From a phage: DNA of 64,000 bases. The stretch lies in the sequence record PQ327946.1. One strand, given 5' to 3'. Made by a program: the position numbers and the translations under genes. Position 1 is the stretch's first letter. Each line of letters begins with the position of its first letter. The notes under the pieces are model-generated. The model did no database searches and was not told where the DNA came from. It was given only the letters and a program-made list of their open reading frames with translations. This document shows positions 52,687-53,142 of this stretch, in pieces.

Positions 52687-53142
52687 TTATTTTAGATCTT
52701 CGGCCCAATCTAGTTTTAAGGGTTCTTTGTATTCACGGTCGAGAATAACCGGAATAGCTACATCACCACTGAATGATAGTTGGCCAACGTTATATGATAA
52801 CGTTATATGTGGAGTGTAGTCGTCGAAATCATGAGTAGCACCTAAAGCTCGTGCATACTGATGACGACATCTAAGATATTCGGAATCAAGAACTAAAACC
52901 AGTACAGCGCCGTCGTCAGTTTTCCATACCTCAAAGTGTCCTGATTCGGCAATAGAATAACTACCACTAGACGTAGTATATGGTATGTTTACACGTGAAT
53001 AACAAATTGTTGAATGAAGCTTTTCACGTGGTACTGGATTAGGAATTCTTAATTTGCGCTGGAGGTCTTCCAGCGCATCAAGTGTTAATTCCGAAAATTT
53101 AGCTGCGACGTAGAGGCCTTGTGAAAAGTCCTCAAATTTCAT
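52687..53142 (-). CDS. 57B: 2H phosphoesterase-family protein, 57B/Acb1-like
   Basis: 151 aa; two H-x-T/S motifs (HSTI, HITL); position upstream of 57A and gene 1. Confidence 0.6.

Follow-up and report, generated by a model that had tools for sequence, protein, structure and literature searches.

A gene 57B ortholog in a T4-like phage, predicted to encode the anti-CBASS nuclease Acb1

The DNA analysed here is a stretch of 64,000 nucleotides of phage sequence (record PQ327946.1), referred to as the window. The gene under study, called acb1 in this work, is an ORF of 151 codons that begins with ATG, and its limits are exactly those given in a preliminary description based on the sequence alone (Table 1). 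The frame is full length, and both its start and its stop coincide with the T4 positions. Around the gene, the DNA shares 99.0% identity with Escherichia phage vB_EcoM_JQD51 and 98.6% with Escherichia phage F2 (Tequatrovirus), and the window is therefore regarded as belonging to a T4-like coliphage. BASEL phage Bas35, for which in vivo data on acb1 exist, was considered as the phage of the window and rejected on the basis of its published PCR primers, one of which matches positions 53460..53483 with 2 mismatches, while the other finds no match in the window within 3 mismatches.

Table 1. Positions of acb1, of its functional elements and of the neighbouring genes in the window.
Feature	Position	Strand	Basis
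acb1, T4 gene 57B ortholog; predicted 151-aa cyclic-oligonucleotide nuclease of the 2H phosphoesterase type	52687..53142	-	ORF and homology
First catalytic motif, H43-S-T45-I (residues 43-46)	53005..53016	-	Corresponds to H44/T46 of T4 and FBB1 Acb1
Second catalytic motif, H112-I-T114-L (residues 112-115)	52798..52809	-	Corresponds to H113/T115 of T4 and FBB1 Acb1
C-terminal lid LDWAEDLK (residues 144-151), including the stacking W146	52690..52713	-	Alignment with T4
gp3	54165..54755	-	Pfam, PHROGs, tblastn with T4 proteins
gp1, dNMP kinase	53377..54111	-	Pfam, PHROGs, tblastn
57A, tail-fibre chaperone, directly upstream of acb1	53142..53372	-	PF17594 GP57, E=5.9e-23
ipI	52322..52609	-	Pfam, PHROGs, tblastn
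trna.4	52072..52257	-	Pfam, PHROGs, tblastn
trna.3	51696..52079	-	Pfam, PHROGs, tblastn
trna.2	51403..51693	-	Pfam, PHROGs, tblastn
TATAAATA, octamer resembling a T4 late promoter, located within gene 1 at ~355 nt upstream of 57A	53727..53734	-	
tRNA-Arg(TCT)	50647..50723	-	
tRNA-Met(CAT)	50730..50803	-	

The order gp3-gp1-57A-57B-ipI-trna.4-trna.3-trna.2 and the orientation of these genes are identical to those of T4, so the synteny invoked in the preliminary description holds. As in T4, acb1 is flanked by 57A and ipI, directly downstream of the former, and its strand and operon layout are also those of T4. The order gp3-gp1-57A-57B is in fact conserved across Straboviridae, since the same block is also found in Acinetobacter phage Acj9, Aeromonas phage 50AhydR13PP, Cronobacter phage S13, Vibrio phage phi-ST2, and Klebsiella phage KP27.

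The TAA stop codon of 57A and the ATG of acb1 share one base (TAATG), an arrangement which suggests that both genes are co-transcribed and translationally coupled. This overlap of 1 nt differs from that of the T4 annotation, which is of 4 nt, and the T4 protein, as annotated, is longer by one Met at the N-terminus than the window protein. Regarding the expression of the pair, the octamer TATAAATA located inside gene 1 is a possible late promoter for 57A and acb1. This copy is worth mentioning because its position is conserved with T4 (L001 5006..5013), with a diverged upstream flank. Nevertheless, the promoter reading is only suggestive, because the site lies in coding sequence and the octamer appears in the window at the frequency expected by chance (8 found versus 8.3 expected). 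A late promoter at this position would fit the timing of the T4 enzyme, whose activity begins ~15 min into infection (PMC9117128). A scan for sigma-70 promoters in the region 52200..54900, a search that says nothing about the middle and late promoters of T4, revealed no enrichment (9 found versus 9.3 expected), and a terminator scan of the same region revealed none between 57A and acb1 and none directly after acb1. The 77 nt that separate acb1 from ipI contain a 7-bp inverted repeat, GGATGAT-N11-ATCATCC (52639..52663, minus strand), followed by TATCAAATAAA. Lacking a T run, this repeat does not qualify as a canonical intrinsic terminator, and it may form a hairpin in the RNA or belong to the promoter region of ipI.

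Several differences from T4 are found on the far side of ipI. The gene trna.3 exhibits 48% identity to its T4 counterpart, compared to 84-89% for trna.2, trna.4, ipI, and 57B, and is, judging from these values, a locally hypervariable gene. Between trna.2 and the tRNA genes lies a 171-aa ORF (50883..51398, minus strand) with no Pfam match; T4 has no counterpart at that position, and the ORF is annotated as hypothetical in phage F2. The tRNA cluster itself (50022..50803, minus strand) is much smaller than that of T4, as it holds two tRNAs versus eight plus segB, and no segB homolog was found in the window by tblastn with T4 proteins. At 50022..50116, ARAGORN also reported a 'tRNA-???' of 95 nt whose anticodon has 4 bases, a call that has no Rfam support at the gathering threshold.

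The protein encoded by acb1 is 85% identical to T4 57B (NP_049750, from NC_000866), with 92% positives over all 151 residues and no gaps. This ungapped similarity, together with the matching gene order, bears out the orthology to T4 57B that had been proposed for it. Its only Pfam match is PF23474 (Acb1), with E=1.8e-58 and a score of 196.8 bits (the cut-off being 27), in an alignment of residues 8-149 of the protein to the whole profile (positions 1-144 of 144). In a search against all PDB chains, the best match was Acb1 from Erwinia phage FBB1 (7T26, apo form; 7T27, with 3'3'-cGAMP), with E=7.9e-59. In this alignment, residues 9-148 correspond to residues 2-142 of the chain, with a single one-residue indel. 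The two proteins are 64% identical and conserve all the catalytic and ligand-contact residues, and they differ in surface residues and in the extra residue that FBB1 Acb1 (a chain of 144 residues) holds after the W73 strand. The assignment of the 2H phosphoesterase fold to the window protein comes from this identity to the solved 7T26 chain. It rests on homology to a solved structure because the AlphaFold2 model built from the single sequence is uninformative (mean pLDDT 38.8, pTM 0.30).

The preliminary description had recognized a 2H phosphoesterase by two H-x-T/S motifs, HSTI and HITL, which are indeed present and are the only HxT/S motifs in the 151-aa protein. However, such a pair can arise by chance, since at least two HxT/S motifs appeared in 14% of 20,000 residue shuffles of the same protein, and the motif pair was consequently rejected as stand-alone evidence. 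Pairs in which both motifs have hydrophobic flanks, as in the window protein, appeared in only 0.3% of 20,000 shuffles. The significance of the match thus relies on the full-length homology and not on the motifs. The full-length matches to PF23474 and 7T26, in which both HxT motifs are aligned, do point to an enzyme of the 2H kind, as had been claimed, with the motifs alone being weak support.

Several functional residues have been named in Acb1. The catalytic HxT/HxT tetrad consists of H44, T46, H113, and T115; Y12, W74, F107, and W147 are the aromatic residues that stack on the bases; E141 contacts the adenine N6; and residues 145-152 form a C-terminal lid that closes over the ligand (PMC9117128). 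The H44A/H113A change renders T4 Acb1 inactive (PMC9117128), and removal of the lid abolishes its activity (10.1101/2025.08.21.671373). All of them are found in the window protein. The tetrad H43, T45, H112, and T114 aligns to those of T4 57B and 7T26, with the first motif facing HSTI in the former and HTTI in the latter, and the aromatic residues Y11, W73, F106, and W146, as well as E140, are present at the aligned positions. The lid is identical to that of T4 (LDWADDLK, residues 145-152) in 7 of 8 residues, with one conservative E/D change. The 23 substitutions that separate the window protein from T4 57B are mostly conservative, and none of them affects a named functional residue. Moreover, when 9 homologs ranging from 85% to 29% identity were aligned, Y11, H43, T45, P111, H112, T114, E137, and E140 were invariant. 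A careful alignment for the loss of catalytic histidines, proposed in the preliminary description as a way to challenge the assignment, therefore found both H43 and H112 retained with respect to T4, 7T26, and the 9 homologs.

The function of the T4 ortholog has been demonstrated experimentally. Fractionation of a lysate of T4-infected cells led to the identification of gene 57B (NP_049750.1) as encoding an activity that degrades 3'3'-cGAMP, and the protein was named Acb1 (Hobbs et al. 2022, PMC9117128). This identification confirms that T4 57B is an anti-CBASS nuclease, as had been stated in the preliminary description. T4 Acb1 cleaves adenosine-containing cyclic di- and trinucleotides with 3'-5' linkages, such as 3'3'-cGAMP and cUA as well as cAAA, whereas it leaves cGG, cA4, and 3'2'-cGAMP uncleaved, and it accounts for all the cyclic-nucleotide cleavage found in T4-infected lysates (PMC9117128). 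A T4 mutant lacking acb1 exhibits a defect of more than 300-fold on CBASS hosts and grows normally on hosts without CBASS (PMC9117128). The FBB1 ortholog has been shown to adopt the 2H phosphoesterase fold (PMC9117128). Later studies, including a preprint, have reported that Acb1 also degrades 2'3'-c-di-AMP and cA3, triggering type I and type II Panoptes (10.1101/2025.08.21.671373). Panoptes-type guard systems sense the loss of decoy cyclic nucleotides, and the inactivation of acb1 is a route by which phages escape from Panoptes.

According to these data, the ORF most probably encodes a functional ortholog of T4 Acb1 (gp57B) acting against CBASS, a reading to which we assign a probability of roughly 93%. 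In its catalytic activity, its range of substrates, and its function in vivo, the window protein would resemble the T4 and FBB1 enzymes. By analogy with them, a small, metal-independent 2H phosphoesterase would act during infection and bind the 3'-5'-linked cyclic signals of host CD-NTases, such as 3'3'-cGAMP, cUA, cAAA, and cAAG. Residues Y11, W73, F106, and W146 would stack on the bases, E140 would read the adenine N6, and the C-terminal lid would close over the ligand. The adenosine would then be strained in such a way that its 2'-OH attacks the adjacent 3'-5' phosphodiester, with the H43/T45 and H112/T114 pairs providing acid-base catalysis without a metal, and the reaction would proceed through a 2',3'-cyclic phosphate intermediate to yield a linear product with a 3'-phosphate. 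The second messenger would thus disappear before the CBASS effectors fire, and the phage would escape abortive infection. The cost of such an enzyme is that the same broad activity could trigger Panoptes-type guard systems. Holding an intact acb1, the phage would be expected to withstand many types of CBASS and to be vulnerable to Panoptes.

The coding sequence of acb1 is 74.8% identical to that of T4 57B at the DNA level. The comparison of both genes by the Nei-Gojobori method yields a dN of 0.13 and a dS of 2.1, for a dN/dS of 0.061; as a dS of ~2.1 means that synonymous sites are saturated, the ratio is to be read as about 0.06. According to this value, the coding sequence is under strong purifying selection.

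The first alternative is that the gene, a widespread allele, encodes an enzyme of the Acb1 family whose substrate spectrum is shifted from that of T4. It could, for instance, spare 2'3'-c-di-AMP or cA3 and so avoid Panoptes, or it could have gained a new target. The 23 amino-acid differences with respect to T4 Acb1 are distributed over both core and surface, outside the named contact residues, and the preprint mentioned above reports that in this structural group it is the core, and not the lid, which sets selectivity, and that the patterns of products and substrates vary even among close structural relatives (10.1101/2025.08.21.671373). The exact substrate range could therefore differ from that of T4, given that the two proteins are not identical in the core, to which the preprint attributes the control of selectivity. 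Nevertheless, all known ligand-contact residues are identical to those of T4, the lid differs by one E/D change, the dN/dS with respect to T4 provides no sign of adaptive change, and Panoptes still restricts T4-like phages of the BASEL collection whose acb1 is intact, all of which makes such a shift very unlikely. Should it be real, a reduced activity on 2'3'-c-di-AMP or cA3 would allow the phage to keep its anti-CBASS function while evading guard systems.

PDE-9 (9Q2G/9Q2Y), a divergent phage 2H phosphodiesterase deposited as Acb1, shares with the window protein the 2H core and two alignable HxT motifs. However, the sequence similarity between them is marginal (E=0.008), and PDE-9 holds an N-terminal lid, in contrast with the C-terminal lid of the T4 type found in the window protein. 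PDE-9 cleaves 3'3'-cGAMP and avoids 2'3'-c-di-AMP (10.1101/2025.08.21.671373).

Members of the 2H superfamily, among them LigT, are characterized by two HxT/S motifs and a metal-independent fold. These general features are shared by the window protein and by the cellular 2H phosphoesterases (2'-5' RNA ligase, CPDase), although the Acb1 clade differs from the latter in its lid and its pocket for cyclic oligonucleotides. This resemblance is the background of a second alternative, in which the protein would work on the ends of RNAs, for instance in the repair of tRNAs, as a LigT-like 2'-5' RNA ligase or an RNA cyclic phosphodiesterase. PHROG 755 and many RefSeq records bear the label 'RNA ligase', and the gene is located near the phage tRNA cluster. 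In spite of this, the Pfam scan (E<=0.01) detected Acb1 alone and no family of the LigT type, all the credible PDB matches are Acb1 entries, and the T4 ortholog performs all the cyclic-nucleotide cleavage in lysates and is dispensable in the absence of CBASS. The identity as an RNA ligase was rejected on these grounds, as there is hardly any chance that it is correct. In the literature examined, no experimental basis was found for this label, which looks like a legacy transfer at the level of the fold.

Finally, since the reading frame is complete and begins and ends where that of T4 does, the tetrad is intact, purifying selection is strong, and the identical sequence is found in dozens of independently isolated phages, it is scarcely conceivable that the gene is an inactive remnant, decaying or non-expressed like the disrupted acb1 of phage Bas43, even though phages can do without acb1 where CBASS is absent and lose it under pressure from Panoptes.

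Homologs of the window gene were found by tblastn in 1470 phage records, 119 of which are at least 99% identical, and among the 60 best-listed of these records 59 are 100% identical, so that the identical protein is present in at least 59 deposited genomes. Carriers with 100% identity among the matches listed include PhAPEC2, JS09, HX01, ST0, and SSE1. In one of the records, PV714129.1 (phage Mizar), the gene is already labelled 'anti-CBASS Acb1-like protein'. The exact protein sequence is thus already public, with one record describing it as Acb1-like, and is in this sense already known. Moreover, the family had been described by 2022, together with its structure, its mechanism, and its role in vivo, and the window gene adds nothing scientifically new to that account.

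The practical value of the assignment lies in annotation, as the gene is commonly mislabelled and is nonetheless an anti-defence gene expected to affect the host range on strains carrying CBASS or Panoptes, and its correct annotation is relevant to the choice of therapeutic phages. In most deposited T4-like genomes 57B is labelled 'RNA ligase' or 'hypothetical protein', labels which are also those of RefSeq T4 and PHROG 755, while a few records use 'cyclic phosphodiesterase', 'putative phosphodiesterase', or 'anti-CBASS Acb1-like'. The record PV204681.1 (vB_EcoM_JQD51), the closest GenBank relative, contains an error of a different kind, as the product names in 3073..7133 are displaced by one gene: among others, the acb1 CDS is named 'tail fiber assembly protein', 57A 'deoxynucleoside monophosphate kinase', and ipI 'RNA ligase'.

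A second anti-CBASS gene is probably encoded elsewhere in the window (38753..39019, minus strand). Its 88-aa product is 64% identical to T4 Vs.4, which we take to be Acb2, and matches PF24729 ('Acb2/Tad1 hairpin domain') with E=8.2e-18. The gene lies between the homologs of vs.3 and vs.5, as in T4. From these similarities, the phage appears to carry both Acb1, which would degrade the signal, and Acb2, which would act as a signal sponge.

The region of the window that encodes internal proteins (40598..42363, minus strand) is rearranged with respect to T4. Here denV (41113..41538) has the ipII homolog (40719..41021) on the side opposite to that in T4, and a 20-aa duplicate of the denV C-terminus is found at 40598..40657. 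No ipIII homolog was found in the window with Pfam and tblastn searches using T4 proteins. A 93-aa ORF (41585..41866) with no Pfam match has an N-terminus that resembles those of ipI (MKTYKEFISP) and ipII (MKTYQEFITE), and it may encode an alternative internal head protein.
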